Assembly: GCA_963719085.1 (NCBI GenBank)
Contig: CAVRAL010000001.1
Span: 992,001 to 1,056,000 of the forward strand
Source: a candidate division FCPU426 bacterium
GTDB lineage: Bacteria > Oederibacteriota > Muellerivitia > Muellerivitales > Muellerivitaceae
Direction of reading: 5' to 3'
Length of the DNA stretch: 64,000 nucleotides
Shown here: one piece after another, positions 21,042-44,980 of the stretch
Numbering within the stretch: position 1 is the first letter of the stretch
Layout of the letters: the number at the start of each line of letters is the position of its first letter
Notes under the pieces: model-generated
The model's database searches: none
The model's input: only the letters and a program-made list of their open reading frames with translations
What the model was told of the DNA's origin: nothing
Translations under genes and position numbers: made by a program

Positions 21042-22067
21042 CTACTTAGGCTGATAAATCTGGTCAAACACCCCGCCATCACCGAAGAAAGCCGGTTGGG
21101 CTTTGCTCCAGCCGCCGAACACCTTGTTGATGGTGAAAAGGTTGATCTTCGGGAAAGTTTTGGCGTATTCCGCCGCCACTTTCTTGTCCCTCGGCCGGTA
21201 GTAATTCCGAGCGACCACTTCCTGGCCTTCGGGCGAGTACAAATAGGTCAAGTAGGCTTGCGCCAAGTCGGTTGTGCCGTGCTTCTGGGTATTTTGATCC
21301 ACCCAGGCCACCGGCGGCTCGGCCAAAATGCTGACCGAAGGGACCACGATCTCAAACTTGTCCTTGCCCAATTCATTGACCGCGAGAAACGCGTCGTTTT
21401 CCCAGGCGATTTCCACGTCCCCCACGCCCCGTTCCACGAAAGTCGTGGTCGATCCGCGCGCGCCCGAATCCAAGACCGGCACATTCTTGTAAAGCTTGGT
21501 CACGAATTCCCGCGCCTTGTCCTCGCTGCCGTATTTTTTCAAGGCGTAACCCCAGGCCGCCAAAAAGTTCCAGCGGGCCCCCCCGGAAGTCTTCGGGTTC
21601 GGCGTAATCACCGAAACATCCGGCCGGACCAAGTCATCCCAGTCGCGGATGTTTTTGGGGTTGCCCTTGCGCACCAACAACACGATGGTGGACGTATAAG
21701 GCGTGCTGTGCTGGGGCAAACGGCTTTGCCAGCTGTCCGGCAAAAGCTGGGCCTTGCTGGCGATGGCGTCGATATCCCCCGCCAGGGCCAATGTCACCAC
21801 GTCGGCTTCCAAACCGTCGATGACCGCCCGGGCTTGCTTGCCCGATCCTCCGTTGGACAAGTCAATCGTCACATCCTGTCCGGTCTTCTTTTTCCAATAA
21901 TCGGCGAAGACCTTGTCGTAATCAGCGTAAAGCTCACGCGTCGGGTCATACGACACATTCAGCAAATGCGCCGCGCCCGCCGGGGCGCCATCCGCCCGGA
22001 CAACCGAGACGGAAGTCGCGGTCAGCGCGAAACTTAAGATTCCCGCTATCCATTTTTTCTTATTCAT
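21042..22067 (-). CDS. sbp: Sulfate ABC transporter periplasmic sulfate-binding protein
   Basis: Signal peptide; [46 protein letters not shown] and AWENDA motifs. Confidence 0.97.
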
Positions 22068-22141: not shown

Positions 22142-23455
22142 TTAAAGGTTGATTTCAGCCTGTCCGATAACCGCCTGGTATTGCTTGAAATGGTCCTCGA
22201 CATTGAGCGAGAGCTTAAAGCGGTCCTTGGCTTGGTACCAATCAATGCCGGCGGTCGCCACATCGTTGTTCCAATGGGCGGGTCCGTTATAGACGTTGGC
22301 GATATAAGACTCGCCACGCACCCCGAAACGCACGTCGCCGATCCGGTACTGCGCCGTCAAGTAATAACCTTGGGGCCAAGATTCCTTCGTGGTGCTCGGA
22401 TTGTAGTAGTTGCCCGGTTCCAGCTTGCCCTGGATATATTCTCCTTGCAGTTTGAATCCGTTGTAAACCCAGCGAAGCTCAAACCCCGTGTTGCTGCGTT
22501 CCCCGGCTGGGGCGTAAACCGTGCTGGTTTTGCCCGCGGCGGAAGTGACCGAAAACAAAGCGTCCTGTTCCCAGCCGCCGTAGAAAGACAATCCGGTCCA
22601 GAGGCCGGTCGCGCCCAATCCGGTCCAATCCACGCCGCCCCGGAAAGCCGCGTCCTTGTTGTCATTGCTATCGGCGATATTTTGCCCCGCGCCCGAAACC
22701 AAGGCCAAGGCGTAATCCACCGCCACCGGTCCAACCGGAATCTTGGAAGCCGAAGCCTGCAAAGCCAAATCGCGCCGGGCTTCGAAGGCCGTCGTCACGA
22801 GGGCCGTGTTGATGAAGTCCAATTCACCCGAGGGTGTACGGCCTTCCAAGGCTTGGGCGTATTTATACTGTCCAAACTGAAGGTCCGCGAAGGGGATATA
22901 GGACGCCTTCACGTAGTAATCCTTCAATTGTTCCCCGTTGGAAACACCCGGCTTCGAGACCGCCGCCGCCGTCACCGGCGTGGCGAACGGACTCGTAAAG
23001 GAAGGACTCACCGCCGCAGTGGCGGCCGCCGGGTCATACTTCACTTGGTACGAAAGCTGTCCCGGGATGAGATCCCCGAAAAGGCCGATTTCCACCCGCT
23101 TGACCGAAAATTGGTCGTAAATGTCGTTGAATCCGGCGGCGGCCGGCGCCACCGGCGCCTTAATCCCGGGAGCCACCGTGCCGAACTGGCTGGCATTGGT
23201 GTATTGACCCTGGACCAAAAGGCTCACCTTGGCGTACTTGGCCAAGTCCGAAATTTTCTTGTTGATGAGCTCCAGGTCCGAAACCGAAATGGCCGACGGA
23301 TCATCGGCGTCCGCCGCGTCCTGAGAATCGGTCACATCGGACGTGGTGGCGGCGGTCGTATCCGTGGCCGGCGCCTTATCCTTGGCCCAAACCTTGGCGT
23401 TGCCAAAAGACAGGGACGTCAGCAAAACCAAAAAAGCAGCTAAAAACCGTTTCAT
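22142..23455 (-). CDS. Outer-membrane anion-selective porin (OprO/OprP-like), putative sulfate porin
   Basis: Signal peptide; beta-strand-rich; [12 protein letters not shown] and [23 protein letters not shown] resemble Porin_O_P motifs; first gene of the sulfate-uptake operon. Confidence 0.7.
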
Positions 23456-23521: not shown

Positions 23522-23755
23522 AAACAAAAAATCCCGGGTCCCGCTGGCTTCAGCGGACTCGGGATTAGGAAAAATTCCATAATCACTAAGACCGCTTTAG
23601 CGCCCAGTTCGCCTTTGCAGGCACGGTCGGGGCAAGTTGGTGGCGGATACGGACAAAGTCCGCAACCGCCCCGGGTGTGGTCCCATTCTTTCCGGGTCCA
23701 CGGGTATTCCGTATCTTTTTGGGATTCGGAATAACGCCGGTTAAAGCCTCACCGT
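23522..23755 (-). ncRNA. SAM-II-like riboswitch unit plus terminator (third in porin/sbp leader; ~100-nt multi-hairpin insertion)
   Basis: ACGGT-GAG-GCTTTAA ... CCAAC-TTGC-CCCG-ACCGT-GCCT(GCAA)AGGC-GAACTGGGC-GCTAAAGCGG; then terminator AATCCCGAGTCCGCTG-AAGC-CAGCGGGACCCGGGATT-TTTTGTTT. Confidence 0.7.
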
Positions 23756-23790
23756 TTCATCGATTGTTCAGAGGGGATTTTTGTTGGATG

Positions 23791-23986
23791 AAAACAAAAA
23801 TCCCGAACCACTTGGCTTAGAGCGGTTCGGGATTCGGGAAATTCTCGAATTCTTCACCGCTTTAGCCCCCAGTTTTTTTCGACCCCAATGACGGGCCAAA
23901 AACGGTCGGGGCAAGTTGGTCAATCCTCTTTCAAGGACCGTTGGAAAAGCCTTGTTCAGACTTTTCGCCAATTAAAGCCACACCGC
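23791..23986 (-). ncRNA. SAM-II-like riboswitch unit plus terminator (second in porin/sbp leader; ~50-nt insertion)
   Basis: GCGGT-GTG-GCTTTAA ... CCAAC-TTGC-CCCG-ACCGT ... AACTGGGG-GCTAAAGCGG; terminator AATCCCGAACCGCT-CTAAGCCA-AGTGGTTCGGGATT-TTTGTTTT. Confidence 0.7.
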
Positions 23987-24012
23987 TTGAAGCGAATGAC
24001 AAATCCAGGGTT

Positions 24013-24145
24013 AAAACAAAAAACCCGGGCCGCTTTAAAAGCGGTCCGGGTTTAGGGATTTCTCTCTAAATCGTCATTTCCGCTTTAGCTCGCTGTTCGG
24101 CTCTTTCGAGCCACGCCGGAGCAAGTTGAAACTTAAAGCCCGCGC
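24013..24145 (-). ncRNA. SAM-II-like riboswitch unit plus terminator (first in porin/sbp leader)
   Basis: GCGCGG-GCTTTAAGTTTCAAC-TTGC-TCCGGCGT-GGCTC(GAAA)GAGCC-GAACAGCGA-GCTAAAGCGG; terminator AAACCCGGACCGCTTT-T-AAAGCGGCCCGGGTTT-TTTGTTTT. Confidence 0.78.
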
Positions 24146-24156
24146 TTGATGTTGGA

Positions 24157-24185
24157 AATATAGCTCGCCACCGATTTCCTGTCAA
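24157..24185 (-). promoter_or_regulatory. Sigma70-type promoter for porin-sbp-cys leader
   Basis: TTGACA-17 nt-TATATT with AT-rich upstream tract, about 10 nt before the first riboswitch-like unit. Confidence 0.8.
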
Positions 24186-24401: not shown

Positions 24402-26324
24402 TCACCGAGCCGACGGAACCCTTCCCCCCACCAACCGACAAAGAGCGGACTCCAAGGCGTCCAAATCCTCGAAGGTGTTATAAAAGGCCAACGAAGCCCG
24501 AACGGTTCCCTCCAGCCCAAAACGACGCAGGATTGGCTGGGCGCAATGGTGCCCTGACCTGACCGCGATCCCTTCCTTATCCAACGCCTGTCCAATCTCC
24601 TCGTTCTTAAACCCATCGATCACAAACGATAGCACCCCGGCCTTTTCCGCGGCGTTGCCAATAATCCGCAATCCCGGGATGGCCTTTAGCTTTTGAGTCC
24701 CATAAACCAGCAGTTCATGCTCATGACGGGCCACATTCTCCAGCCCGACCCGATCCAGATAATCGAGCGCCGCGCCCAAACCCACCGCGTCGGCGATATT
24801 GCCGGTCCCGGCCTCAAATCGTCCGGGAGCAGGCTGGTAAAGGGTCTTCTCGAAAGTCACATCGGCGATCATGTTTCCCCCTCCCTGCCAGGGCTGGAAG
24901 GAATTTAAAAGAGCTTCCTTGCCGTGCAAAACCCCGATTCCCGTCGGCCCAAAAACCTTGTGACCCGAAAAAACATAAAAATCACTATCCAGCTCCGCCA
25001 CATTCACCCGGAGATGGGAAACCGCCTGGGCCCCATCCACCAATATTTTCGCACCATGGCGGTGGGCGATTTCAATCAACTGCTTCACCGGCGTCAACGT
25101 TCCCAAGGCGTTGGAAACTTGCGTCACCGAAACCAACTTCGTCTTGTCCGTTAAAAGTTTCTCGTACTCGTCGAGTAGGACCTGTCCCGAATCATCCACA
25201 GGAATGACCCGCAGTTTCGCGCCCTTGGCGGAGGCGAGATGCTGCCATGGAACGATATTGGCGTGGTGTTCGAGCCAGCTGACGATAATCTCGTCGCCCG
25301 CCCCGATGTTCTGCTCTCCCCAGGCCTTGGCCACCAGATTGATGGCCTCGGTGGCGCCCCGAACGAAAACAATTTCTTTCGCCGAAGAAGCCCCCAAAAA
25401 TCGCCGCGCTTTTTCTCGGGCCCCCTCGTAAGCGTCCGTAGCCCGGGCGGCCAGGGTATGGGCGGCGCGGTGAACGTTGGAATTCTCGTTGGCGTAAAAA
25501 TAATCCAACCGGTCAATGACGGTTTGGGGTTTTTGCGTGGTGGCCGCGTTGTCCAACCAAACCAAGGGCTTCCCGTTGATCTTCTGCCGCAGGATGGGAA
25601 AATCTTTTTTATACCAGGCCGCGTCAAAGACCGGACGCGGACCGCCCGAACTCAGGGGAGCCACCACTGGCGTAAAAGCATAAGGATCCGCCAAGACGGC
25701 CCCCGGTTCATTTCCGCCCTCCAAAAGAACCGATCCCGGCACGCCGCTCGTTCCCGCCGAAAAAATTTCAGAGGATGGCTGGGTCGACGCGGGGACGCTG
25801 TTTATCTGATCGGACACTTTGGATGGCGCCTCAGCCGGGGACTTCGCTTTTGGATTTTCCTCAAGTTTCAAATCCTCGGGAAAAACCGCCGGAAATGAAA
25901 AAGCCCTGCCATCCGTTCCGATCGGCAGCGCGGAACCGGAAAAAGGGTTCACCGTTTCCGAATGGGAACTGGGGGCGGAAAAAAAAGCCGACAACCCTAA
26001 ACCCGCCGGAATCCCGGCCAAAACCCCCGAGTCCAAGGGTTCGGTCAACAGTCCGGCCGGCGATGAAATCGGCGTGAAGGGCTGGAACGAGGCCAAACTG
26101 CCGGTGGGTCCTCCCGGAACCGGTGAGGGCGCCGCGATGGCCGGTGAAGGGCTTGAAACCACCGAGGGCAACGGCGGCTGCCCCGACAAAACAGAGCCCG
26201 CGGACGGCGTCGCCGGATGTCCCGGAACGGCCCTGAAAAACTCGTTGGCCAACTCGGTCAACAAGGCCGGATCCGGAGCCAAGGTCCCCCAAGAGGATTC
26301 AGGATTGGGGTTACTTGTAGTCAT
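24402..26324 (-). CDS. SufS-type (class II) cysteine desulfurase with ~230-aa disordered N-terminus: family 2A encapsulin cargo
   Basis: WLDNAATTQKP, VHRAAH, FSGHK (PLP Lys) and RSGHHCA motifs; P/S/G/A-rich N-terminal extension with LTELANEFF motif; ATG overlaps the end of the encapsulin gene. Confidence 0.93.
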   Translation of the reverse strand: MTTSNPNPESSWGTLAPDPALLTELANEFFRAVPGHPATPSAGSVLSGQPPLPSVVSSPSPAIAAPSPVPGGPTGSLASFQPFTPISSPAGLLTEPLDSGVLAGIPAGLGLSAFFSAPSSHSETVNPFSGSALPIGTDGRAFSFPAVFPEDLKLEENPKAKSPAEAPSKVSDQINSVPASTQPSSEIFSAGTSGVPGSVLLEGGNEPGAVLADPYAFTPVVAPLSSGGPRPVFDAAWYKKDFPILRQKINGKPLVWLDNAATTQKPQTVIDRLDYFYANENSNVHRAAHTLAARATDAYEGAREKARRFLGASSAKEIVFVRGATEAINLVAKAWGEQNIGAGDEIIVSWLEHHANIVPWQHLASAKGAKLRVIPVDDSGQVLLDEYEKLLTDKTKLVSVTQVSNALGTLTPVKQLIEIAHRHGAKILVDGAQAVSHLRVNVAELDSDFYVFSGHKVFGPTGIGVLHGKEALLNSFQPWQGGGNMIADVTFEKTLYQPAPGRFEAGTGNIADAVGLGAALDYLDRVGLENVARHEHELLVYGTQKLKAIPGLRIIGNAAEKAGVLSFVIDGFKNEEIGQALDKEGIAVRSGHHCAQPILRRFGLEGTVRASLAFYNTFEDLDALESALCRLVGGRVPSAR

Positions 26325-27234
26325 AGTATTGCGCCACATCGACGTCCTCGAGCACCGCCACCGCGTCATCGGTCAAAACAGCCAAGGAGCAGTAGAGGGA
26401 AATCAAATAAGACGCGATCGCTTTGCTGTCGATGCCCATGAACCGCACGGACAAACTGGGGCTGACTTCCCCCGGCAGTCCGGGCTGAAAAAGACCGATG
26501 ACCCCCTGTTTTTTCTCCCCGGTTCGGATGAGGAGAATATTCGTCTTGTTCTTTTCGTCGATCTTGACCTTATCGCTCGACACGATCGGGATTCCGCGCC
26601 AAGTCAAAAAGGGCGATCCAAACAAAGTCGTCGTCGGAGGCGGAACACCCCGGCGGGTGCATTCCCGCCCAAAGGCCGCCACGGCTTTGGGGTGGGCCAA
26701 AAAGAAAGAAGGCTCTTTCCAGACCTTCGTGATCAATTCGTCTAAATCGTCAGGCGTTGGGCGGCCCTGGCGGGTCTTGATCTTTTGCGAATCCAAGGCC
26801 GAATGGATCAGGCCGTATTCCTTGTTGTTGATCAACTCGCCTTCCTGGCGTTCCTTAACCCGTTCGATCAAAAGCCGCAATTGCTCCTGTATCTGGTCGA
26901 TCGGCTTGCTGTAAAGGTCGGAAACGCGGGTCTGCACATGCAGGACCGAGGTCACCGCGTTCAACCATAATTCTTTCGGGAACTCGTCGTAATTGACGAA
27001 GGTCTGGGGCAAATCGGCGTCTCCCCGCGGGCTGCATTCCACATCCGGTCCGTTGCTTTTATCTTTTACTTTATTCAGCCGGAAAATCCCCGATTCCACC
27101 GGCACCCATTGAAGAAATGGCACCAGCCACCGCGGCGTGATCCCCTCCCATTGGGCGTGTGTCTTCGTGACATTCGCCAACTGCGTGGCCGCGTTTTCTC
27201 CCAGCGTTCTGCGCACTTCTATTGATTCCGCCAT
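26311..27234 (-). CDS. Family 2A encapsulin shell protein (SrpI/major membrane protein I-like)
   Basis: AATQLANVTKT..QW..ITPRWL, LPQTFVNY, QLRLLIERVKERQE.EL, PTPDDLDELI.KVWKEP and ECTRRGVPPP motifs; 307 aa; upstream of a cysteine desulfurase. Confidence 0.93.
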   Translation of the reverse strand: MAESIEVRRTLGENAATQLANVTKTHAQWEGITPRWLVPFLQWVPVESGIFRLNKVKDKSNGPDVECSPRGDADLPQTFVNYDEFPKELWLNAVTSVLHVQTRVSDLYSKPIDQIQEQLRLLIERVKERQEGELINNKEYGLIHSALDSQKIKTRQGRPTPDDLDELITKVWKEPSFFLAHPKAVAAFGRECTRRGVPPPTTTLFGSPFLTWRGIPIVSSDKVKIDEKNKTNILLIRTGEKKQGVIGLFQPGLPGEVSPSLSVRFMGIDSKAIASYLISLYCSLAVLTDDAVAVLEDVDVAQYYDYK

Positions 27235-27290
27235 GACCGCCTCCCTGAATGAAATAGTTCGTCCACTACCGGCTCAACGTTTCATAAGAC

Positions 27291-27551
27291 TCAAAAACCG
27301 CTCCGACCGGCGCTTGGAAGATGGGTCGTGGTTTTAGCCCTGTTGACGGACCAATCCAATTCCGACTTCCCGGCCTTCCTGAAGCCATTCCTGAAATAGG
27401 CCCGCCAAACAATCCCCAGGCTTCCCAAAAACAGAATGGGACCGCTTTTAAAGCTCGAGGCCAAAAACCAAAGGGTCAGTCGCTTGGAAGCGACCAAGTC
27501 CCGCTCAATTTCCCGCCTCCACAAAATCAATTGCTTCGTTTCTGAATTCAT
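27291..27551 (-). CDS. Possible small hypothetical protein (86 aa) between riboswitch leader and encapsulin
   Basis: GGAGG RBS before ATG at 27551 (MNSETKQLILWRREIE...); one hydrophobic stretch; no recognised homology. Confidence 0.4.
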   Translation of the reverse strand: MNSETKQLILWRREIERDLVASKRLTLWFLASSFKSGPILFLGSLGIVWRAYFRNGFRKAGKSELDWSVNRAKTTTHLPSAGRSGF

Positions 27552-27572
27552 CTTTTCCTCCCGCGGCGGGAT

Positions 27573-27709
27573 AAAAAAAAATCCCAAACCGCCTGATACT
27601 CGCGGTTTGGGATTAGGGGAAAAACCCGATAATCTTCTTTCCGCTTTAGCGCCCTGTTGACCCCTCGCGGGGCACGGCCGGGGCAATTAGGTCAACAAAG
27701 CCTCGCCGG
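27573..27709 (-). ncRNA. SAM-II-like riboswitch unit plus terminator (second in encapsulin leader)
   Basis: CCGGC-GAG-GCTTTGTTGACCTAA-TTGC-CCCG-GCCG-TGCCCC(GCGA)GGGGTC-AACAGGGC-GCTAAAGCGG; terminator AATCCCAAACCGC...GCGGTTTGGGATT-TTTTTTT. Confidence 0.72.
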
Positions 27710-27767
27710 TATCCCGATTCTTGTGAAATCGGGAAAAAAGCATTGAATTTAAGGGTTTTTTGCCCAT

Positions 27768-27898
27768 AAACAAAAAACCCGGGCCGCTTTAAAAGCGGTC
27801 CGGGTTTAGGGATTTCTCTCTAACACGATCTTCGCCGCTTTAGCTCGCTGTTCGACCCGAAGGTCACGCCGGAGCAAGTTGGAACTTAAAGCCCGCGT
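27768..27898 (-). ncRNA. SAM-II-like riboswitch unit plus terminator (first in encapsulin leader)
   Basis: ACGCGG-GCTTTAAGTTCCAAC-TTGC-TCCGGCGT-GACC(TTCG)GGTC-GAACAGCGA-GCTAAAGCGG; same terminator as the unit at 24013-24145. Confidence 0.78.
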
Positions 27899-27911
27899 TT
27901 GAATCTTTTAA

Positions 27912-27939
27912 ATCCTACCACTCCCTTTCGGCATGTCAA
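27912..27939 (-). promoter_or_regulatory. Sigma70-type promoter for the encapsulin leader
   Basis: TTGACA-16 nt-TAGGAT with extended -10 TG, just upstream of the first unit. Confidence 0.7.
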
Positions 27940-28121: not shown

Positions 28122-29522
28122 TTAAAACAGCCAAAACCTTTTGTGACTGGAAGCCTTCAGCTTGTTCGAGTCCAATTCTTCCACCGGATTTTCCGAATGG
28201 GGCGTCCCGGCGGGAACCCAGTCATAAGGAACAGGCTGGGCCCGATAAACCCAGTTCACAATGATCCCCTGCCCGCTTTGGTCCCAACCATCATGGGCTT
28301 GGTTAACGTAGGGGTTGACATATTCCCAGACGATCTCCCCAGTCGGAGTCACTTGGAAAAACCGTCCATCCCGTCCCTCGTCGATCAGCGTATTACCATT
28401 GGGAAGCCTGCGGGCGCTGCTGATGAAATGGCTCTGGAAAGACCAAATGGGCCGACCGGAGTTCTCGCCCGTGTACTGCCAAACGATCTGCTTGGTCACC
28501 GGATTAATTTCCAAAACCCGGGATCCGCCAATCAAAGAAACCGGCGGCCATCCCGCGCTGCCCTGGTTGTCGAACACCAACAGGTCACCCGCGCCCGGCA
28601 AGCCTTCGGGAATGATATGGGCGTCATGTTGGCCGGAGATCTGGTCCACGGGCCGCGGCACTTTGGATCCCTTAACCGGCGGATAATCCGGTCCTTGGCG
28701 CCAAACGACCTTGCCTGTGTGCCGATCGATGATCACGATGAAATTAGCGTTGCGGGAATCAAGAAGGATATTATCCGGATTGAAGCGCTTGTCTCCCGCG
28801 TCAAACCAATGGTTCGGACCCACTACGTTGAACTTATTAATGGTCAAGAAGCCGCTGCCTTTTTGCGGCGCGTTGTCCCCTTGGTGAATTTGTTTTTTCA
28901 GGTAGGCGATCCCCGCCGGTGAAATGCCAAACTCGCTTAAGTGGTCTCCCGCCACCCATTTCCAGACGATTTTACCGTCCGGCGTCACTTCATAAATGGC
29001 TTGGTCGGCGATGTCTTGGTCGCCCAATTCCTTGATTTTGTGGACCACGGTGACATCCAGCAGCGTATTGCCGTTGGGCAGTCGGTGCCAGTCATGGTTC
29101 TGGCGGGCCGCCCCGCCCGGCGCTTGTTCGCCCCACTCCCAAACGGTTTTTCCGTCCCAGTCCAATTCCCCAACGGTTTTATTGTGGAAAATCCCGCCCC
29201 AAGTATCTTTGCCGTCCGAAGAAAGTTGGACCAGCACATGACCCAGCTTTCCGCCGGTGATTTTGGGATCCAGCAATTCACTGGGAAAACCCCAATGGTT
29301 CCATCGGTGGACCTCATTTCCATCCAAGTCAATCAGATGGGTATTTCCATCCGGGGCCCCGAAGAGTACATAGCTGTTATAGGCTTTGGCCGGATCGTAG
29401 ATCGTGGTTCCCGTCAGGTAAACCCGGGGTGCCGCCGACAATTCCCCCGTTCCGATGGCGGTCAAAAGAACGGCCGCCGGCAATATCAGATTCTTTTTTG
29501 AAAAAAATTGACACAGTCTCAT
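28122..29522 (-). CDS. Arylsulfate sulfotransferase (ASST) family protein, paralog 3
   Basis: Signal peptide; NHDWHRLPNGNTL, DSRNAN, GQHDAH, LLVFDN and SSARRLPNGNTLIDEG motifs. Confidence 0.88.
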   Translation of the reverse strand: MRLCQFFSKKNLILPAAVLLTAIGTGELSAAPRVYLTGTTIYDPAKAYNSYVLFGAPDGNTHLIDLDGNEVHRWNHWGFPSELLDPKITGGKLGHVLVQLSSDGKDTWGGIFHNKTVGELDWDGKTVWEWGEQAPGGAARQNHDWHRLPNGNTLLDVTVVHKIKELGDQDIADQAIYEVTPDGKIVWKWVAGDHLSEFGISPAGIAYLKKQIHQGDNAPQKGSGFLTINKFNVVGPNHWFDAGDKRFNPDNILLDSRNANFIVIIDRHTGKVVWRQGPDYPPVKGSKVPRPVDQISGQHDAHIIPEGLPGAGDLLVFDNQGSAGWPPVSLIGGSRVLEINPVTKQIVWQYTGENSGRPIWSFQSHFISSARRLPNGNTLIDEGRDGRFFQVTPTGEIVWEYVNPYVNQAHDGWDQSGQGIIVNWVYRAQPVPYDWVPAGTPHSENPVEELDSNKLKASSHKRFWLF

Positions 29523-29545
29523 TTTCTTATCCTTTTCTTAAAATT

Positions 29546-30994
29546 TTATTTCTGTGCGGTCGGAGGTGGATTAAAAATCTCAGGCTCCGCCACCGGCTTT
29601 TCCGAATGGGGCGTTCCCGTCGGCACCCATTCGTACGGCACCGGGATAGCCCGGTAAACGTAATTACTGATCACCTGAGCGTTTCCCGTGGGCGCCCAAA
29701 CCTTGTCGCCGGGTTGGTTCACGTAGGGATTAACGTATTCCCAGACGATCTTGCCGGTTGGGGTGATCTGGAAGAATCTTCCGTCACTTCCCTCATCGAT
29801 AAAAGTATTGCCGTTGGGAAGACGCCTGGCATCGCTGACGAAATGACTGCGGAAGGTCCAAGCCGTGCGACCCGAATCCTCACCCGTGTATTGCCAAATG
29901 ATCTGTTTGGTCACCGGGTTGATTTCCAACACCCGGGAGCCGCCCAACAAGGAAACCGGGGGATAGCCCGCGCTTCCCTGGTTGTCAAATACCAAAAGAT
30001 TGCCGGCGCCCGGCAAGCCCTCGGGAATAATCTGGGCGTCATGCTGGCCCGAGATTTGATCCACCGGACGGGGCAATTGGCTCTGCGGATTGTCCACGAA
30101 TTGGCTGGTCACCTTCACTTTGACGCGGGGAAAATCCGGACCCAGGCGCCAAACGACCTTCCCCGTTTTTTTGTCGATGATGATGATGAAGTTGGCGTTG
30201 CGGGAATCCGTGATGATGTTGTCCGGATTAAACCGCTGGTCACCTTCGTCAAACCAATGGTTGGGCCCTATGGGTTTCATGTTGTTGAAATGAAGATACT
30301 CGACATTCTTGCCCCGCCCCACGACCTCACGCAGATATTGCAGGTCGCTCGGGGTAAAACCGAACTCGGCCAAATGGTCCCCTGCGGTCCAAGTCCAGGC
30401 GATTTTCCCATCGGGCGTGACTTCATAAAAGACTTGGTCATGCACCGGCGCCTTTACCAATCCCTTTACCGGATGGGTGACATTCGAGAGGATCAGGGTA
30501 TTGCCGTTGGGCAGGCGCGCCCAATCATGGTGCTGGTCCGCGGCCCCGCCGGGGGCATTCTGGCCCCATTCCCAAACGGTTTTGCCGTCCCAATCCAGCT
30601 CACCGAATATCTGGTTGTTGAAAAAGCCCCGTTCCCGTCCCGGCGCGTTCTTGAGTTGTAGCAGAACATGCCCCAACTGTCCGCCCGCCAGCTTCGGGTC
30701 GAGCAACCCCGCCGGGAAACCCACATGAGGCCAGGAATGGACTTCATTCCCGTCCAAATCGATCAAGTGGGTTTTTCCGTCCGGCGCGGAAAAAATCACG
30801 TAGCTATTGTAGGCCTGGGTCGGATCGTAAATCGTGGTGCCCGTCTCAAAAATCCGGGGATTGGCCGAAAGAGTCGAAATCCCCGCCAACCCAATTCCCG
30901 CCGCCAAGGACAAAATCTTTAACGAACCCCAAAAAATTCCTGGCGGGGACGCGATGGGTCCCCGCCATTTCGATAGTTTGTCGGATTTATTCAT
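29546..30994 (-). CDS. Arylsulfate sulfotransferase (ASST) family protein, paralog 2
   Basis: QHHDWARLPNGNTL, YLHFNN, DSRNAN, GQHDAQ and LLVFDN motifs. Confidence 0.9.
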   Translation of the reverse strand: MNKSDKLSKWRGPIASPPGIFWGSLKILSLAAGIGLAGISTLSANPRIFETGTTIYDPTQAYNSYVIFSAPDGKTHLIDLDGNEVHSWPHVGFPAGLLDPKLAGGQLGHVLLQLKNAPGRERGFFNNQIFGELDWDGKTVWEWGQNAPGGAADQHHDWARLPNGNTLILSNVTHPVKGLVKAPVHDQVFYEVTPDGKIAWTWTAGDHLAEFGFTPSDLQYLREVVGRGKNVEYLHFNNMKPIGPNHWFDEGDQRFNPDNIITDSRNANFIIIIDKKTGKVVWRLGPDFPRVKVKVTSQFVDNPQSQLPRPVDQISGQHDAQIIPEGLPGAGNLLVFDNQGSAGYPPVSLLGGSRVLEINPVTKQIIWQYTGEDSGRTAWTFRSHFVSDARRLPNGNTFIDEGSDGRFFQITPTGKIVWEYVNPYVNQPGDKVWAPTGNAQVISNYVYRAIPVPYEWVPTGTPHSEKPVAEPEIFNPPPTAQK

Positions 30995-32369
30995 GGCTCA
31001 CCGCGTTCAATCCAAAGACATCCGGCTTGACGACGGCCTTTTCCGAATGGGGTGTTCCAACCGGAACCCATTCATAGGGCACCGGGATGGCCCGGTAAAC
31101 GTCATTGCTAATGATCGCGCTGCCGGTGGCGGAAAGCCTATTGACGTAGGGACTCACATATTCCCAAACAATCTCGCCCGTCGGCGTCACCTGGAAAAAC
31201 CGTCCATTCATACCTTCATCAATGAAGGTATTTCCATTGGGAAGACGCCTGGCATCGCTGATGAAATGGCTGCGGAAAGTCCAGGCCGGACGGCCCGAAT
31301 TTTCGGCCGTATATTGCCAAACGATTTCTTTTTTCACCGGGTCGATTTCCAGCACCCGGGAACCCGGGCCCGTCGCGACGGGCGGGTAACCGGCGCTTCC
31401 CTGGTTATCGAACACCAGCAAATCGCCCGCGCCTTGCAGTCCCTCCGGAATAATCTGGGCGTCATGCTGGCCCGAGATTTGGTCCACGGGCCGGGGCAAT
31501 TCGTCCTTCGGACTTACGGACAAACCCGCGGCTATTTTCAAGCGGGGATAATCTGGGCCTAATCCCCAAACCACCTTCCCGGATGGCTTGTCGATAATGA
31601 CGATGAAATTGGCGTTACGTGAATCCACGATGATGTTGTCAGGATTGAAACGTTGGTCTCCCGCCTCAAACCAATGGTTTTTTCCAACGACCTTCATGTC
31701 GTTGATGTGCAGGTAATCCACGTTCTTGCCGCGCGCGACGACCCCGCGCAGGTAGGCCAAGTCCGATGGGCTGAAACCAAACTCACTTAAATGATCTCCC
31801 GCCACCCAGGTCCAGGCGATCTTGCCGCCCGGCGTCACTTCGTAAATGACATCGTCCAAGACGTCCTGATCGGACAAAGCCTTAACCTTGTGGGTGAGGT
31901 GGGACAAAACCAGGGTGTCGCCATTGGGCAGACGGCCCCAGTCATGGTGCTGTTTGGCGGCCCCGCCGGGCGCCTCCGTTCCCCATTGCCAAACGGTTTT
32001 GCCGTCCCAGTCCAGCTCCCCAAGCACCTTGTTGTTGAAAAAACCCGTTTCAATCCCCGGGTCATTCTCGAGTTGGACGATCACATGGCCCGGTTGTCCG
32101 CCTGTTAAAGCGGGATCAAGCAACCCGGCCGGAAAAGCCACATGAGCCCAGGAATGGACCTCATGGCCGTCCAAATCGATTAAATGGGTCTTTCCATCCA
32201 ACGCCGAAAAAATCACATAGCTGTTATAGGCTTTGGCCGGATCGTAAATCGTCGTTCCCGTCTCAAAAACCGAAGGCGAGGCCAATCCCATACCAATCCC
32301 GGCCGCCCATAACAACGCCGGCATGGCCGAAATCTTCAATCTTTTTGAAAAAATTTTTTTCCAATCCAT
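30987..32369 (-). CDS. Arylsulfate sulfotransferase (ASST) family protein, paralog 1
   Basis: AAGGA RBS before ATG 32369; QHHDWGRLPNG, YLHIND, DSRNAN and GQHDAQ motifs. Confidence 0.9.
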   Translation of the reverse strand: MDWKKIFSKRLKISAMPALLWAAGIGMGLASPSVFETGTTIYDPAKAYNSYVIFSALDGKTHLIDLDGHEVHSWAHVAFPAGLLDPALTGGQPGHVIVQLENDPGIETGFFNNKVLGELDWDGKTVWQWGTEAPGGAAKQHHDWGRLPNGDTLVLSHLTHKVKALSDQDVLDDVIYEVTPGGKIAWTWVAGDHLSEFGFSPSDLAYLRGVVARGKNVDYLHINDMKVVGKNHWFEAGDQRFNPDNIIVDSRNANFIVIIDKPSGKVVWGLGPDYPRLKIAAGLSVSPKDELPRPVDQISGQHDAQIIPEGLQGAGDLLVFDNQGSAGYPPVATGPGSRVLEIDPVKKEIVWQYTAENSGRPAWTFRSHFISDARRLPNGNTFIDEGMNGRFFQVTPTGEIVWEYVSPYVNRLSATGSAIISNDVYRAIPVPYEWVPVGTPHSEKAVVKPDVFGLNAVSHE

Positions 32370-32482
32370 CGTCTTGTCCTTTTTAAGGAGAAGTATTTCC
32401 AGTGGACTGGTCAATTTTTCTCTTAGATTTCCAGGGAACCTTCGTCCCCCTTTATCGCCGTTGTCGGCGATCCGCTTCATTT

Positions 32483-32659
32483 TCAGCCGTTCTCGTCCTT
32501 CACCAACCGGATCCGCTCAATCTTGTCGATCTGCGTGATCCGGGAATTATGGACGGTGATTTGCACCGTCCCATAACGCATCCCCTTGATCGCCGCCAAT
32601 ATTTTTTGGACCAGTTGAACTTGTTCTTCTTCCGTCAAAAGCTCGTTCTTCGCCGACAT
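32483..32659 (-). CDS. YezD/DUF2292 (OscA-like) small sulfur-starvation protein, 58 aa, absent from the ORF track
   Basis: Translated by hand: MSAKNELLTEEEQVQLVQKILAAIKGMRYGTVQITVHNSRITQIDKIERIRLVKDENG; matches the RYGxVxIxVHxxxxxQIxxxExxR pattern; GGGGGA RBS. Confidence 0.85.
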   Translation of the reverse strand: MSAKNELLTEEEQVQLVQKILAAIKGMRYGTVQITVHNSRITQIDKIERIRLVKDENG

Positions 32660-32692
32660 AAAATCCCCCCCTTTCCACCGATAAACCTCAAC

Positions 32693-35068
32693 TTACAGAA
32701 TGTAAAAGCCCGCGCCCAGGTTGAATGTGGTGCCCACGTTCTCGTACACCGAGTAGTATTTCAGGTTGAAGATGTTATCCACCCCGGCCGAAATATTGCC
32801 GCCGTTAAACTTGTATTCAGCCTTGAAATTAAAGGTCGTGAAGGGATCAAAGCTCCCCTGCACGCCGTTGACCGTATCAGAGTTGTTCGAGGTGGTGTAA
32901 CGCTTGGACTGATAGGTTCCTGAGAGGGAAACCAACCAATCTTGCGGCGTGAAATCCACCCCAAAGTTCACCTCATCCGCCGGGATATTCGGCACCTGGT
33001 GCCCGACCGAAGTCGGCTGGGCCGCGTTAACCGTGATCTTGTCATCCAAATGGGTGTAGTTCCCGAAGACATCAAAATCCGCATTCACCTTTTGTTTTAA
33101 TTCCGTCTCAATGCCGTTGATTTGCGCTTGGCCCGCGTTGAAGTACTGCGTGATGGTGGTCACGCCCGCAGTCGAGGTGTCGGCGTAAATCAAATTGGTG
33201 AGCGCGTTGTTGAAATAAGTGGCCGAAACGGTTGTTTGGGTCGGCAGCTCATATTCCCCGCCGATTTCCCACGCCGTATCCAGTTCCGGCTTGAGGTTGG
33301 GATTGGGAATAGTCTCGGTGTTGGTGCCTGACGAGAAGAGGTAAAGCTCGCCCGAGGTCGCGGGGTTAAAAGCCTGCCCCCAAGAAGCGCGCAAGCTGCC
33401 GTTTTGGTCCACTTTGTAAACCAAGCTGACCTTCGGGGTCACTTGGTCAAAGCTGACCGTGGGATAGGTCACTTCCGTCGACAGTAGTGTATTGTAAATT
33501 TTTCCGTCGGCGGAAATCCAATGGTCCCAACGGGCCCCCAAAAAGGCTGTCAAGGAGGGGAAAATTTTCCATTGGTCCTGCGCGAAAAGCGAGTCCGTGG
33601 TCTCGTTGTCCCCGTTGCCTTGGCTGGTATTCTCAACGAAATCGTTGATATCCGTCCAATTGGCGAAGGTGACGTTGTAGCTGGTGAAGGCCGCGTAGTC
33701 CCAATTGAACCCCACGATCACTTCATGGTTATCCAGCTTTTGATCGGCCTGGATGTTCGCGAATCCTTCCCAATCGGCCTCCATGTCCGTTCCCGTGCCG
33801 GTTCCGGAGAAAGGAGTCGTGGCCGCCGGAAGGGCCGACTCGGCGATATGCAAAGGTCCGGCCGTCCAAGCGAAACTGCCCGTCAGGTTTAAATCCGCGT
33901 TCTCTTTGCCCTTGTATTGCAGGTAGGACCCGAAGAAACCGTTCTTCCCCGGCGCCGTCAAGAACTGCGATTGATTAACGCTGATGTTTTGTCCCGTTCC
34001 CGCCAGGGACACCGAACCGTTCAACACCGTGGCCGGGGCGCCGGTCGTGGCGTCCTTCAGGTAAGAGGTCCCGATTTGTCCCGTCGGGTTGGTGTTCGGC
34101 TGGTCCCAATAGGAATAATTGAGAAGCAGCGTGAAGATCTGGTCCTTATCGGGCGTGAAGTACAACTTACCCGTATAGTTGTTATTCTCCTGAACCGTCC
34201 GGGCGATCTCCCCGATGTTATAAAGAACGGTGGTTCCGCTGTTGTTCGTCGTTTGATTAAAGCCAGTCACCACTTCGGTGGGGGTCAACCCGGTTTTAGC
34301 CGCGGCTTGGACGAACTGATGGTCCGTGTATCCATCGATTCCGGTATTTTGAAAGCCGAAATAATAGGCGAACAAATCGTTGGGCTTATTCTCGTAGCTG
34401 ATATTGGTGGTGCGCACATTGGCGCTGTTCCAATCCTCGCTGAAATTGAAGCTCTCACCCTCGGGTTCCTTGGTGATTACGTTAATGACCCCGCCCACCG
34501 CGTTTTTACCCCACAAGGCGGAAAAAGGCCCCCGGACCACTTCCACGTGGTCCACCAATTGGGAGGGAATCCGGTTCCAGAAAACCCTTTCGTTGCCCAA
34601 CTGATTCAGCTCAAAACCATCCAGCAAAGCGAGGTTCTTTTCATATCCGGGAATCCCCCGCAAAGAAACCGTGACACCCTGGCTGCCCTCACCACCCGAG
34701 CGGTCAACCTCGACCCCCGGTAAGCCGGTCAAGGCATCGTCAAAAAATCCGATATCCTTTTTGGCCAGATCGTCTTTGGTGATGACTGAAATAGCCGCCG
34801 GCGAGTCCAGAATTTTTAATTTACTTTTGGTCCCGGTGATCACAACGGCGTTCAAGTCGTAATTCGGAGCCGTGGTCCCGGAAGCCGGGGCCAAATTGGC
34901 GGCCACCGGAGTTTGCGCCGTGGCGGTCGTGACGTCCGCGTCAGGAGCCGCCGCGGCGTCACCTGCCCCCGTATCCGGATCCGGAGTAGGGGTTGATTCC
35001 GCCCCCACCCAGGACGAAAGTCCTAAAAATAAACCCGCGGTCAAAACGAATGAAAATAACTTAGACAT
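32693..35068 (-). CDS. TonB-dependent outer-membrane receptor
   Basis: Signal peptide (ATG 35068, GAGG RBS); TonB box AVVITGTK; plug motifs VSLRG and VEVVRGPFSALWGKNAVGGVINVITK; LKPE; aromatic C-terminal strand. Confidence 0.93.
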   Translation of the reverse strand: MSKLFSFVLTAGLFLGLSSWVGAESTPTPDPDTGAGDAAAAPDADVTTATAQTPVAANLAPASGTTAPNYDLNAVVITGTKSKLKILDSPAAISVITKDDLAKKDIGFFDDALTGLPGVEVDRSGGEGSQGVTVSLRGIPGYEKNLALLDGFELNQLGNERVFWNRIPSQLVDHVEVVRGPFSALWGKNAVGGVINVITKEPEGESFNFSEDWNSANVRTTNISYENKPNDLFAYYFGFQNTGIDGYTDHQFVQAAAKTGLTPTEVVTGFNQTTNNSGTTVLYNIGEIARTVQENNNYTGKLYFTPDKDQIFTLLLNYSYWDQPNTNPTGQIGTSYLKDATTGAPATVLNGSVSLAGTGQNISVNQSQFLTAPGKNGFFGSYLQYKGKENADLNLTGSFAWTAGPLHIAESALPAATTPFSGTGTGTDMEADWEGFANIQADQKLDNHEVIVGFNWDYAAFTSYNVTFANWTDINDFVENTSQGNGDNETTDSLFAQDQWKIFPSLTAFLGARWDHWISADGKIYNTLLSTEVTYPTVSFDQVTPKVSLVYKVDQNGSLRASWGQAFNPATSGELYLFSSGTNTETIPNPNLKPELDTAWEIGGEYELPTQTTVSATYFNNALTNLIYADTSTAGVTTITQYFNAGQAQINGIETELKQKVNADFDVFGNYTHLDDKITVNAAQPTSVGHQVPNIPADEVNFGVDFTPQDWLVSLSGTYQSKRYTTSNNSDTVNGVQGSFDPFTTFNFKAEYKFNGGNISAGVDNIFNLKYYSVYENVGTTFNLGAGFYIL

Positions 35069-35215
35069 TGCTAACCTCGCATCAATTTGATGAGCAACGC
35101 CAGTGGACTGGAAGTTACCGAATTTTTTCACTTCGTTACCGAGCGGAAGTCCGCGCCGTTTAAAATAACCACAAAACCAATGCCCCTTCTGCCAACCCGC
35201 CATAAGCTCCTTCGC

Positions 35216-35794
35216 TCAATTCAGCTGGAACAAAATCGGAAGCGTCACTTCACAGGCCACCGGCGCGCCGTTCGCGTCGCAAGCCGGGGTGAAAATGCCG
35301 GCCTTGACCTTTCGGATCGCGAATTCATTCAAAACCTCGTAAGTTCCCTTCAGCAGCCGAACCTCCTGAACCAGCCCCTGGGCGTCAATGTGGAGCAGAA
35401 GCACCACCCGGCCGTCGCTGCCCGACTGGCGGGCCACCGAGGGATAATCGTCCGGATCAATCAAATTCCCCACCCAACGGGGCTTGCGAGAGGTCTGCGA
35501 TTCGGGCACCCAAACCGTCTGCGATTGGACCGGTTCCAGATGTACTTTTTCCGGAACGACTTTCTCGGCGGCCTGGTGCCCTTTTTTCGGCAAGGTCCAT
35601 TTAAAAGGCGGCTGGGTCACAACCGGGTTCATTTCCAGGTCCGTGATGACGACCGAGCGATGCGCGAAAAACAACAGGTACAAGATCAAGAACAAAGCCG
35701 TGTGGACCAAAATGGAAAGGCTAGTTCCCGCCGCCAAGGGCTCTCCCCAGAACTGCGCGAAACCGGCTTTATTTGTCAGAGACAAGTGCGACAT
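35216..35794 (-). CDS. tonB: Energy transducer TonB
   Basis: TM segment SILVH; C-terminal YPSVARQ...GRVVLLLHID..G.V..V and FTPA motifs; follows exbD. Confidence 0.88.
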   Translation of the reverse strand: MSHLSLTNKAGFAQFWGEPLAAGTSLSILVHTALFLILYLLFFAHRSVVITDLEMNPVVTQPPFKWTLPKKGHQAAEKVVPEKVHLEPVQSQTVWVPESQTSRKPRWVGNLIDPDDYPSVARQSGSDGRVVLLLHIDAQGLVQEVRLLKGTYEVLNEFAIRKVKAGIFTPACDANGAPVACEVTLPILFQLN

Positions 35795-36170
35795 GGTCGA
35801 CCCCCGCTTGTTTAATCACATCTAAAGCCGACACCACCTGCTGGTAAGGCAATCTACTGTCCGCCGCCAGCGTGATTCGAACCCCCGGATTTTCCGCCAC
35901 CTCCTGGGCCAGCGCGGTCTTCAGTGCAGCCAAGTCCGTCTTGTCTTTTCTCAAGTAAACTTGGCCCTTGTCGTCGATGGAAACAGAAAGGGTCGGAGCC
36001 GCCGGACTGTCCCCCGTTTCGGTTTTCGGCAAATTGATCTTGAGGCTCGCCTCCGACACGAAAGTTCCCGCCACCATGAAAATAATCAAAAGTACCAGCA
36101 TGATGTCCACCATCGGGGTGACATTGATGCCGGTCACCGTGCCATCTTCTTCGATATAATTTGAGCTCAT
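35769..36170 (-). CDS. exbD: Biopolymer transporter ExbD
   Basis: INVTPMVDIMLVLLIIFMV and AD..LPYQ.VV..LD motifs. Confidence 0.93.
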   Translation of the reverse strand: MSSNYIEEDGTVTGINVTPMVDIMLVLLIIFMVAGTFVSEASLKINLPKTETGDSPAAPTLSVSIDDKGQVYLRKDKTDLAALKTALAQEVAENPGVRITLAADSRLPYQQVVSALDVIKQAGVDHVALVSDK

Positions 36171-36225
36171 GGTCCCCCTCTTTCTTCTTCACTTTTTTAA
36201 CGGCTTAACTCCCGGCTCAACTTCA

Positions 36226-36957: not shown

Positions 36958-37103
36958 CAACAAAAAACCCGAACCGCTTTCAAACGGTTCGGGTCATGAA
37001 ATAAATCATTGCCTTCAAACCGCTTTAGTTCCCGATTCGCCCAAGGGTTGAAACCTCAAACCTTGGAGCCGGCTGGGGGCAAGTTGGTACTTAAATCCCG
37101 CCG
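36958..37103 (-). ncRNA. SAM-II-like riboswitch unit plus terminator (third in exbB leader)
   Basis: CGGCGG-GATTT-AAGTACCAAC-TTGC-CCCCA-GCCG-[CCAAGG..CCTTGG hairpin]-GAATCGGGA-ACTAAAGCGG; terminator ACCCGAACCGTTT-G-AAAGCGGTTCGGGT-TTTTTG. Confidence 0.72.
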
Positions 37104-37117
37104 TAAAAATAATCCGT

Positions 37118-37258
37118 AAAAAAAAAATCCCAAAACCACTTCTTGTTGAAGCGGGTTGGGATTCCGGATCGTCCGATAATCTTGTTCCGCTTTAGCGCCC
37201 TGTTTATCCCCTCTCGGGGGATACGGCCGGGGCAAGTAGGTCAACAAAGCCTCGCCGG
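37118..37258 (-). ncRNA. SAM-II-like riboswitch unit plus terminator (second in exbB leader)
   Basis: CCGGC-GAG-GCTTTGTTGACCTAC-TTGC-CCCG-GCCG-TATCCCCC(GAGA)GGGGATA-AACAGGGC-GCTAAAGCGG; terminator AATCCCAACCCGCTTC-AACAA-GAAGTGGTTTTGGGATT plus T-run. Confidence 0.75.
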
Positions 37259-37355
37259 TGTTCCAATCCTCCCAAAATTCATCAGCCGGAGGTTGAAACC
37301 ACACCCGCTTCGATTCGGAGCGGGAAAAAGCTTAAATTTAAGGGTTTTTCGCCAT

Positions 37356-37486
37356 AAACAAAAAACCCGGGCCGCTTTAAAAGCGGTCCGGGTTTAGGGA
37401 TTACTCTCTAACTCGTTCGACACCGCTTTAGCTCACTGTTCGACCCGAAGGTCACGCCGGAGCAAGTTGGAACTTAAAGCCCGCGC
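37356..37486 (-). ncRNA. SAM-II-like riboswitch unit plus terminator (first in exbB leader)
   Basis: GCGCGG-GCTTTAAGTTCCAAC-TTGC-TCCGGCGT-GACC(TTCG)GGTC-GAACAGTGA-GCTAAAGCGG; terminator identical to those at ~24030 and ~27790. Confidence 0.78.
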
Positions 37487-37499
37487 TTGATGCTTTTGA

Positions 37500-37528
37500 A
37501 ATTTATTTCAATCGACGAAAAATGTCAA
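37500..37528 (-). promoter_or_regulatory. Sigma70-type promoter for the exbBD-tonB-receptor-ASST leader
   Basis: TTGACA-17 nt-TAAATT with AT-rich upstream tract. Confidence 0.75.
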
Positions 37529-44773: not shown

Positions 44774-44807
44774 GATTCTTTTCCTCCGACGCCCGGAGCC
44801 TTTCACC

Positions 44808-44843
44808 AAAAGAAAAAGGCTTCCATCCCGAGATGGAAGCCTA
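44808..44843 (-). terminator. Intrinsic terminator of the SAM-I expression platform
   Basis: AGGCTTCCATC-TCGG-GATGGAAGCCT-TTTTCTTTT; upstream GAGATGGAA can pair with the 5' arm as an antiterminator. Confidence 0.85.
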
Positions 44844-44857
44844 GATTCGGATTTCCA

Positions 44858-44980
44858 TCTCTCATCGACCCCGGCCTAAAGCCGGAGCAGGAATTGGCAC
44901 CTAGCAATTCCCCCCCTACGGGGGAAATCCGGTTGCCGTGGTTTCATAGGGCCTGTCCCTCCACCACTCTGGATAAGAGC
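44858..44980 (-). ncRNA. SAM-I (S-box) riboswitch
   Basis: CTCTTATCCAGAG-TGGTGGAGGGACAGGCCCTATGAAACCAC-GGCAACC ... AGGTGCCAATTCC ... GATGAGAG matches the canonical S-box consensus. Confidence 0.95.

Follow-up and report, generated by a model that had tools for sequence, protein, structure and literature searches.

A riboswitch-like RNA family upstream of sulfur genes heads a family 2A encapsulin operon in an uncultured bacterium

The window analysed here is a stretch of 64,000 nucleotides from a candidate division FCPU426 bacterium (GCA_963719085.1, contig CAVRAL010000001.1, positions 992,001 to 1,056,000), and it contains an operon for a family 2A encapsulin shell and its cysteine desulfurase cargo that is preceded by two tandem copies of a small structured RNA, each followed by an intrinsic terminator. 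The RNA belongs to a conserved and covarying family that is associated with sulfur genes and employs two kinds of expression platform. This family is apparently undescribed, no Rfam family matches it, and it apparently belongs to a group of uncultured soil bacteria. By analogy with known systems, the element is probably a new class of OFF-riboswitch that senses sulfur sufficiency through putative ligand binding, a reading favoured here with moderate confidence. It would act as a shared regulator of a sulfur-starvation regulon, of which the encapsulin is one member.

RNA units in the encapsulin leader and in the genome

A preliminary description of the window, made from its letters alone, had placed a promoter and two aptamer-terminator units ahead of the encapsulin genes and had called the leader riboswitch-like. 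The promoter and both units of this leader (leader B, Table 1) are found as described, and the term riboswitch-like is justified by a conserved covarying family, two kinds of platform and a coherent sulfur regulon. In unit B1 the terminator carries CCGCUUU in its 5' arm, which is the complement of the aptamer tail AAAGCGG. An 18-nt core common to units B1 and B2 occurs eight times in the window, compared to 0.41 copies expected, and none of 100 shuffles reached this number. All eight copies lie on the minus strand in three arrays of three, two and three units (leaders A, B and C), and the whole 3.04-Mb genome holds nine copies, every one of them upstream of sulfur genes and co-oriented with them. 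The ninth copy has its own promoter and precedes a 1-Cys peroxiredoxin gene.

Within the three leaders of the window, promoters were found only ahead of the first unit of each array, that of leader C (TTGACA at 37528-37523) being recognised by eye. Leader B is, on comparison of the two leaders, a recent paralogous copy of units 1 and 2 of leader C, and this copy comprises the promoter, unit 1, a spacer with one 40-nt indel, and unit 2. A degenerate third unit was also sought in the 334-nt gap before the shell gene with filters switched off, where the best score was 5.8 bits, and no promoter-like site was seen on the minus strand between unit B2 and the shell gene.

Fold of the aptamer

The aptamer is about 75-80 nt long. 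Its structure statistics are pooled over 137 distinct sequences (148 matches) from related genomes, in an alignment fitted to the motif's own covariance model. A 4-bp helix, a-a', joins the 5' tail (CGGY) to RCCG, the four bases after GCYCC-N, and is paired in 98% of cells; three of its four pairs vary in both partners (CG78/AU41/UA8/GU4, GC94/CG42 and CG96/UA32/UG6). Taken as a whole, the proposed structure has 92.7% of its cells paired, versus 27-49% with slid partners, its covariation score was reached by none of 500 shuffles, and an alignment of 80 distinct sequences displays the same covariation trend. The loop of helix a-a' carries the invariant strings GGCUUUA and CCAACUUGCYCC, the linker from the helix to GGCUUUA is GA or GAG (2-3 nt), and between GGCUUUAA and CCAACUU some members have an insertion that can reach about 100 nt. 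A variable hairpin (P3) follows directly after helix a-a'; it has 4-15 bp, is free in sequence and length, often bears GNRA-like loops, and folds at -3 kcal/mol or lower in 114 of 126 unique units.

The 3' tail, AACAG-GGNGC-UAAAGCGG, can pair with GCYCC (helix P2) and with GGCUUUA, and because both partners lie inside the loop of helix a-a', the overall order is modelled as an H-type pseudoknot. One position of P2 (GCYCC/GGNGC) shows U-A and C-G pairs (UA25/CG34) beside 77 non-pairs. These data give good support to helix a-a' and the P3 hairpin and partial support to P2. Two assignments were dropped, namely GGCUUUA/UAAAGC as a closing helix P1, for which covariation is absent and in place of which the 5'-tail helix a-a' is the supported stem, and GUUGACC/GGUCAAC, which occurs in the minimum-free-energy fold of unit B2 and is absent from its paralogue C2.

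Expression platforms and the proposed switch

A hairpin with a U-tract follows 73 of 81 units, at a distance of 41-54 nt in nearly all (three lie further away), and in 68 of these 73 the sequence CCGC or CCGT, complementary to the invariant GCGG of the tail, stands before the 3' arm of the hairpin. A small hairpin of variable sequence lies between the aptamer and the terminator. Six members that are located directly before a start codon lack the U-tract and have instead a platform that sequesters the Shine-Dalgarno (SD) sequence. In all six of them the RNAalifold prediction joins the tail AGCGG to the arm CCGCU and lets the 3' arm GGGG, freed in this way, pair with the CCCC of a downstream GACCCC, which leaves the SD open; GACCCC is an anti-SD, complementary to the SD sequence GGGGUU. 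At locus L013 the arm, the anti-SD and the SD have changed together (GGGGCC, GGCCCC and GGGGCU), a three-way compensation as judged by eye.

Both types of platform agree with a model in which a free tail would leave the genes ON, while a tail held by the aptamer would permit the hairpin to form and turn them OFF; the direction of the switch and the ligand-dependent stabilisation of the tail are modelled on other riboswitches. In leader B, the promoter at 27939 would drive the small open reading frame (ORF), the shell gene and the desulfurase gene through two tandem RNA copies, each with its own intrinsic terminator. The invariant 3' tail AACAGGGNGCUAAAGCGG would be kept in the pseudoknot loop by a sulfur-sufficiency signal, with the result that the hairpin forms and transcription stops, and once free it would bind CCGC(UUU) in the 5' arm of the downstream hairpin and block termination. 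In the translational members the same hairpin would free the anti-SD, which would then mask the ribosome-binding site. The signal would most likely be a directly bound small molecule, and read-through of two or three serial units would need every unit to be unliganded.

Distribution and regulon

A covariance model built from the nine copies of the genome itself finds the motif in 33 of 99 genomes of the phylum (counted at E<=1e-5), which divide into 28 of 30 in the family of the window (f1), three of five in f3, one of two in f15, and none of 61 in the remaining 20 families. An earlier search of 61 genomes of the phylum gave the same picture. The bearing genomes carry 1-11 copies, mostly in arrays of one to three units, of which three-unit arrays are common. 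An exact-pattern scan of species-representative genomes yielded 75 loci, 67 of which were scored with the model after eight overlapping loci on the same contigs had been left out. The model confirmed 42 of the 67, most of them labelled Elusimicrobia or Elusimicrobiota or only vaguely labelled, and the confirmed set also includes Ca. Firestonebacteria, Ca. Obscuribacterium magneticum, two metagenome-assembled genomes (MAGs) labelled 'Acidobacteria', a contig of a Persephonella MAG and a 1.16-Mb Caldisericales contig (locus L097). The remaining 25, which the model rejected as chance matches, are all single matches, none is labelled Elusimicrobia, and they include Firmicutes, Bacteroidota, Proteobacteria and Chloroflexota.

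The subtypes of the unit occur in a fixed order. The GCUCCGGCG subtype ('type 1') stands first in 25 of 46 arrays with at least two units and was found in none of 56 later units, while the translational platform goes with the GGAUUUA subtype, which tends to close the array.

A tally was made of the genes that come first behind 45 arrays, with 34 ORFs tested against Pfam and the others assigned by N-terminal similarity or left unidentified or doubtful. Porin_O_P-type porins (about 13) and 1-Cys peroxiredoxins (10) prevail, followed by a small protein family without a Pfam match (three), by a sulfate-binding protein, an ABC ATPase, ExbB and DUF2292 (two each), and by single cases of a MetY-type enzyme, a DsrE-like protein, a nitroreductase and the 86-aa ORF of the window; four ORFs are doubtful, and three arrays reached the end of the locus. 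Each examined array has a gene on the same strand within about 30-170 nt, and across 17 genera the genes form a functionally coherent set. To judge by its gene content, the regulon reads as a textbook sulfate-starvation response. The 1-Cys peroxiredoxin lsfA of P. aeruginosa, for instance, shows one of the strongest inductions under sulfur starvation (more than 45-fold) according to the available part of one report (PMC12581299).

Two groups of small proteins recur under the motif. One, of about 110-145 aa and without a Pfam family, is repeatedly the first gene after an array (L019 399-749, plus strand; L023 1609-1938 and L012 2058-2492, both minus strand). The other consists of DUF2292 (YezD-like) proteins located right under the motif (L036 938-1126, minus strand; L038 1965-2153, plus strand), a placement that would tie this uncharacterised family to sulfur starvation.

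The encapsulin, its cargo and their link to the RNA

The shell protein aligns over its full length, end to end, with the solved SrpI structure 6x8m (E 2.6e-125), which bears out the earlier family 2A assignment, and likewise with 8t6r (E 1.6e-131) and with homologues from Acinetobacter and mycobacteria. PF19307 is the sole domain in its 307 residues, a cyclic nucleotide monophosphate (cNMP)-binding domain is absent, and family 2B structures (470-477 aa) match residues 65-302 only. The reading frame of the desulfurase extends to 26369 (ORF 24402-26369, minus strand), and its start is probably at 26324, because M16 is the invariant start in an alignment with three orthologues. The desulfurase gene does overlap the shell gene, as had been noted, the overlap probably being 14 nt and not 59. 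Its N-terminal region gave no match in the domain search, also in keeping with the preliminary description, and it is followed by the catalytic part, with the Pfam domain Aminotran_5 at residues 270-639 of the long ORF (E 9.3e-147) and a SufS/CsdB-type domain at residues 231-636 of the shortened, M16-start protein. The motif LTELANEFF is located exactly where it had been reported, and among the orthologues its region is kept as I/L-A-R/E-L-A-N-E-F-F. In the parts of Nichols et al. (2021; PMC8049743) that were available, the motifs conserved among SrpI-associated desulfurases are LARLANEFFS and AASPYYFLDG, and SrpI is said to be induced by sulfur starvation, which agrees with the background on cargo loading and induction given in the preliminary description. 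A D-x-Y-x-F stretch is also kept among the orthologues, and its likeness to the second published motif is loose. By sequence, the two proteins are a family 2A encapsulin and its cysteine desulfurase cargo, and both are ordinary members of the known type.

The closest described counterpart is SrpI/CyD of Synechococcus elongatus PCC 7942, whose shell is matched over its full length by the present one (E 2.6e-125) and whose cargo, as far as the accessible part of that article (PMC8049743) goes, combines a disordered N-terminal domain with a LARLANEFFS-type motif, like the one here. The two systems also share a neighbourhood of sulfur genes, and relatives of the present genome have the encapsulin in an operon with cysK and cysE. 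In contrast, the control of the cyanobacterial genes is known only as induction by sulfur starvation, whereas an RNA leader is the apparent control point here. Between leader and shell gene lies the 86-aa ORF, which is probably the first gene of the encapsulin operon. No Pfam family matched it, and one homologue was found in 30 other genomes of the family (45% identity, E 3.7e-9), located directly downstream of the desulfurase gene in genome G003.

The preliminary description had inferred direct RNA control of the encapsulin, and this stands insofar as the leader is covarying and riboswitch-like; it is, however, not specific to the encapsulin, as seven of the nine genomic copies precede other sulfur genes. 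Shell homologues are present in six of the 99 genomes of the phylum, and the motif lies directly before the shell operon in this genome only. The proposed scan of other family 2A loci found no directly upstream motif, either within 1.5 kb of the shell gene in the five other genomes of the phylum (filters off) or at 80 metagenomic encapsulin loci with shells 96-67% identical. Five of these 80 (shell identity 80-90%) contain the motif, in no case directly ahead of the shell gene on its own strand, and the other 75 are without it, several of their contigs being too short upstream to judge. In four relatives of the same family, a motif array stands at the head of an operon whose genes are tightly packed, run in one direction and have encapsulin and desulfurase as their last members. 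Ahead of the shell gene, all four operons contain cysE (Hexapep) and an NmrA-like gene, two contain cysK (PALP), one has DUF3034 and MetY, and one has further genes, including one with an EAL domain. Because the placement is direct here only, distal in the relatives and rare among the metagenomic loci, the RNA is best described as a lineage-specific regulator of sulfur genes that captured the encapsulin operon, and the paralogy of leaders B and C indicates that capture in this genome went by duplication of a ready-made cassette of promoter and two units. In genome G010, a gene for a DUF7007 protein (L121 9840-10283, plus strand) follows the encapsulated desulfurase in the same operon.

Known RNA families and alternative explanations

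Rfam 15 was searched both at gathering thresholds and permissively (E<=10 for the leader and E<=5 for five further loci with the motif), and no riboswitch or leader family was found on any unit; the only match at gathering thresholds in the whole window is a SAM-I riboswitch (S-adenosylmethionine, SAM; Table 1). The SAM-I or S-box regulon of Firmicutes (RF00162) likewise uses terminating leaders and lets one RNA family shut many sulfur-assimilation operons, but its fold is unrelated, with a four-way junction and about 108 nt, and the one true SAM-I here belongs to another operon. Tandem complete riboswitches, such as tandem thiamine pyrophosphate (TPP) units, were reportedly described by Welz and Breaker in 2007; these also place two or three full aptamer-plus-terminator units in one leader, whereas the present arrays have distinct unit subtypes in a fixed order. 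The sul1 motif of Weinberg et al. (2017) is another candidate cis-regulator, located upstream of sulfate transporters, and is an orphan RNA for which its authors did not see sulfate binding, at least in the accessible part of the article (PMC5737381). It is a separate RNA family that is in Rfam and does not match the units. The literature searched describes no natural riboswitch before an encapsulin, as the preliminary description had supposed (the eight papers that mention both are engineering work or reviews to judge by their titles), and yielded nothing on riboswitch candidates in Elusimicrobia and nothing relevant on riboswitches with sulfate starvation or peroxiredoxin.

The closest resemblance is to SAM-II (RF00521) and SAM-V, which are small H-type pseudoknots, the fold modelled for the new motif, with a 3' tail (GCUAAA..G) that pairs with a GCUUU-containing loop strand, and which also control sulfur or methionine genes and also occur in tandem. 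The new motif differs from them in its first stem, a G+C-rich 4-bp helix, in an L1 of 2-3 nt that is not U-rich, in an insertion of 11 nt (or much longer) with the invariant CCAACUU that splits the loop strand, in the extra helix P2 and the variable hairpin in L3, and in a regulon of sulfate starvation rather than methionine. The two motifs meet at locus L097 (1333-1571, minus strand) of the Caldisericales contig, where the order is the new motif with its terminator, a SAM-II riboswitch with a terminator-like hairpin, and lastly a 183-aa ORF without known function. In this SAM-II copy the loop strand CUUUAUUGC pairs with the tail GCUAAAAAG; compared by eye, the strands that correspond to them in the new motif are GGCUUUA...UUGC and GCUAAAGC, a resemblance in sequence that may reflect common ancestry or a similar binding solution. 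No SAM-II was found in the genome of the window itself, a weak blank, as control genomes gave none either.

It is conceivable, though unlikely, that the element is a distant, re-engineered relative of SAM-II or SAM-V that senses SAM as a global sulfur signal, comparable to the S-box of Firmicutes; this would be a sub-case of the riboswitch reading that differs only in the ligand. The strand order (stem-1 5' strand, loop strand, stem-1 3' strand, L3, tail into the loop) is that of SAM-II, although the pairing of the tail into the stem-1 loop is without covariation here. The letters shared with the L097 copy are strikingly similar by eye, the invariance of GGCUUUA/UAAAGC would suit a ligand site, and MetY-type genes stand behind the motif in locus L025 and genome G010. 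On the other side, the Rfam models of SAM-II, SAM-V and SAM/SAH score no unit, whereas the true SAM-II at L097 reaches 42.1 bits against a gathering threshold of 36, and the model of the new motif in turn gives that copy no score. In SAM-II the U-rich L1 strand forms a triplex with P2b, for which the linker of 2-3 nt between helix a and GGCUUUA leaves no counterpart. Furthermore, a SAM-I riboswitch is already present in the genome, where it belongs to another operon, and apart from the MetY type no methionine- or SAM-cycle gene is found among the identified first genes of the 45 clusters. A tandem with a true SAM-II, as in L097, more often means two different ligands, but SAM-II/SAM-V tandems exist.

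An improbable alternative is that the units are binding sites of a trans-acting factor, either an RNA-binding protein like PyrR and TRAP or an uncharged tRNA, that chooses between terminator and antiterminator. Long invariant single-stranded stretches with little covariation, here CCAACUUGC and GCUAAAGCGG, are a typical feature of protein-binding sites too, in principle the invariant UGC could serve as a Cys codon, and serial attenuators on one leader occur in protein-dependent systems such as the pyr operon. Nevertheless, T-box has no Rfam match over the leader and the five other loci and is far larger than the element, the conserved UGGN for the tRNA 3' end is not seen in the alignment, and since the motif is present in other phyla too, the factor would have to travel along; a regulator gene beside the clusters was not noticed, no systematic search for one having been made. 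It is most improbable that the units are tandem small-RNA genes or selfish intergenic repeats that lie near sulfur genes by chance or descent. A terminator per unit means that short RNAs are produced anyway, and leader B is itself a recent copy of part of leader C, but promoters occur only at the first unit of each array, same-strand genes follow closely, the gene set is coherent across genera, some members are fused to SD-sequestering platforms, paired positions covary, and the nine copies in the genome are all at sulfur genes.

Several observations also weigh against the riboswitch reading itself. Much of the covariation in helix a-a' separates paralogous types of unit, therefore the independent events are fewer than the cell counts, and the aligned sequences come from related genomes and were fitted to the motif's own model. 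The third position of P2 is a non-pair in 77 of the 137 sequences. The pairing GGCUUUA/UAAAGC never covaries, and 22 of the 137 sequences have an uncompensated C-to-A change, so that invariance and analogy are the basis for this part of the fold. The antiterminator between tail and hairpin arm amounts to only 4-8 bp in individual units, and covariation between the flanking bases of the tail and the arm was not seen. Finally, 334 nt including an ORF separate unit B2 from the shell gene, where an unrecognised internal promoter is possible.

As regards the signal of the putative riboswitch, SAM or a SAM-like compound can be suggested tentatively, and the same tentative weight is given to a metabolite of the cysteine branch or of inorganic sulfur; a protein or other factor as the signal is rather unlikely. 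The SAM or methionine ligand implied by the preliminary description is therefore one candidate among several.

Other features of the window

The features are collected in Table 1. The gene set under leader C may constitute an outer-membrane system that scavenges organic sulfate esters in sulfur starvation, and the three arylsulfotransferase (ASST)-like beta-propeller genes within it are paralogues in a row. A ThiF-family (E1-like) gene (37555-38283, minus strand) ends directly upstream of the leader C promoter. The gene after the SAM-I riboswitch encodes a PALP-family enzyme of 423 aa (43538-44809) with an N-terminal zinc-ribbon-like stretch, which may be a threonine-synthase-like homocysteine or methionine enzyme, and together with the ThiF-family gene it hints at a sulfur-carrier-protein pathway nearby.

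Table 1. Features of the encapsulin operon, the RNA leaders and neighbouring genes (positions in the window)
Feature	Position	Strand	Remarks
Promoter of leader B, sigma70-like	27939..27912	-	TTGACA-16-TAGGAT with TG extension; 10/12 consensus matches
Unit B1 aptamer ('type 1')	27904..27829	-	79.2 bits with own covariance model
Unit B1 intrinsic terminator	27804..27772	-	G+C-rich hairpin, -20.8 kcal/mol, and U-tract
Unit B2 aptamer ('type 2')	27714..27635	-	78.9 bits with own covariance model
Unit B2 intrinsic terminator	27613..27573	-	G+C-rich hairpin, -23.6 kcal/mol, and U-tract
86-aa ORF	27291..27551	-	GGAGG ribosome-binding site; hydrophobic stretch; between leader and shell gene
Family 2A encapsulin shell gene (SrpI-like)	26311..27234	-	307 aa; PF19307, E 3.9e-102
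Cysteine desulfurase cargo gene	24402..26324	-	Probable start at M16; disordered N-terminal domain, then SufS/CsdB-type domain
LTELANEFF cargo-loading-type motif	26261..26235	-	Desulfurase residues 37-45 (long ORF)
Leader A, three units	23586..24185	-	Promoter 24185-24157; units 24151-24074, 23991-23851, 23760-23586
Genes under leader A	22142-23455; 21042-22067	-	Porin (Porin_O_P); sulfate-binding protein
Leader C, three units	37014..37528	-	Units 37492-37417, 37263-37181, 37109-37014
Genes under leader C	28122-36915	-	ExbB, TonB, TonB-dependent receptor, three arylsulfotransferase-like genes
SAM-I riboswitch	44859..44979	-	83.6 bits; sole SAM-I of the genome, on another operon

Implications

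The cysteine/sulfate branch of sulfur assimilation is, to our knowledge, one of the few such central pathways without a known riboswitch, and no use of the term 'cysteine riboswitch' was found in the literature searched. A bolder reading, which for now is doubtful, is that the element represents the first riboswitch class for the cysteine/inorganic-sulfur branch, with cysteine, sulfide, thiosulfate, adenosine 5'-phosphosulfate or 3'-phosphoadenosine 5'-phosphosulfate (APS/PAPS) or a related compound, not SAM, as its ligand, and that it is the master regulator of the sulfate-starvation response, including the encapsulated desulfurase, in Elusimicrobiota and some neighbouring lineages. If this were true, the tandem with SAM-II in Caldisericales would act as a naturally occurring gate with two inputs, one from the cysteine branch and one from the methionine branch.

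With about 130 matches in 33 genomes, covariation, two types of platform and arrays of up to three units, the element is a well-populated candidate, and the fixed order of subtypes inside its arrays is unusual in itself. It would provide a compact (~80 nt) sensor part. The identity of its ligand would reveal how sulfur is sensed in a poorly known, uncultured phylum, and would define, for the first time, a regulatory input to a family 2A encapsulin.

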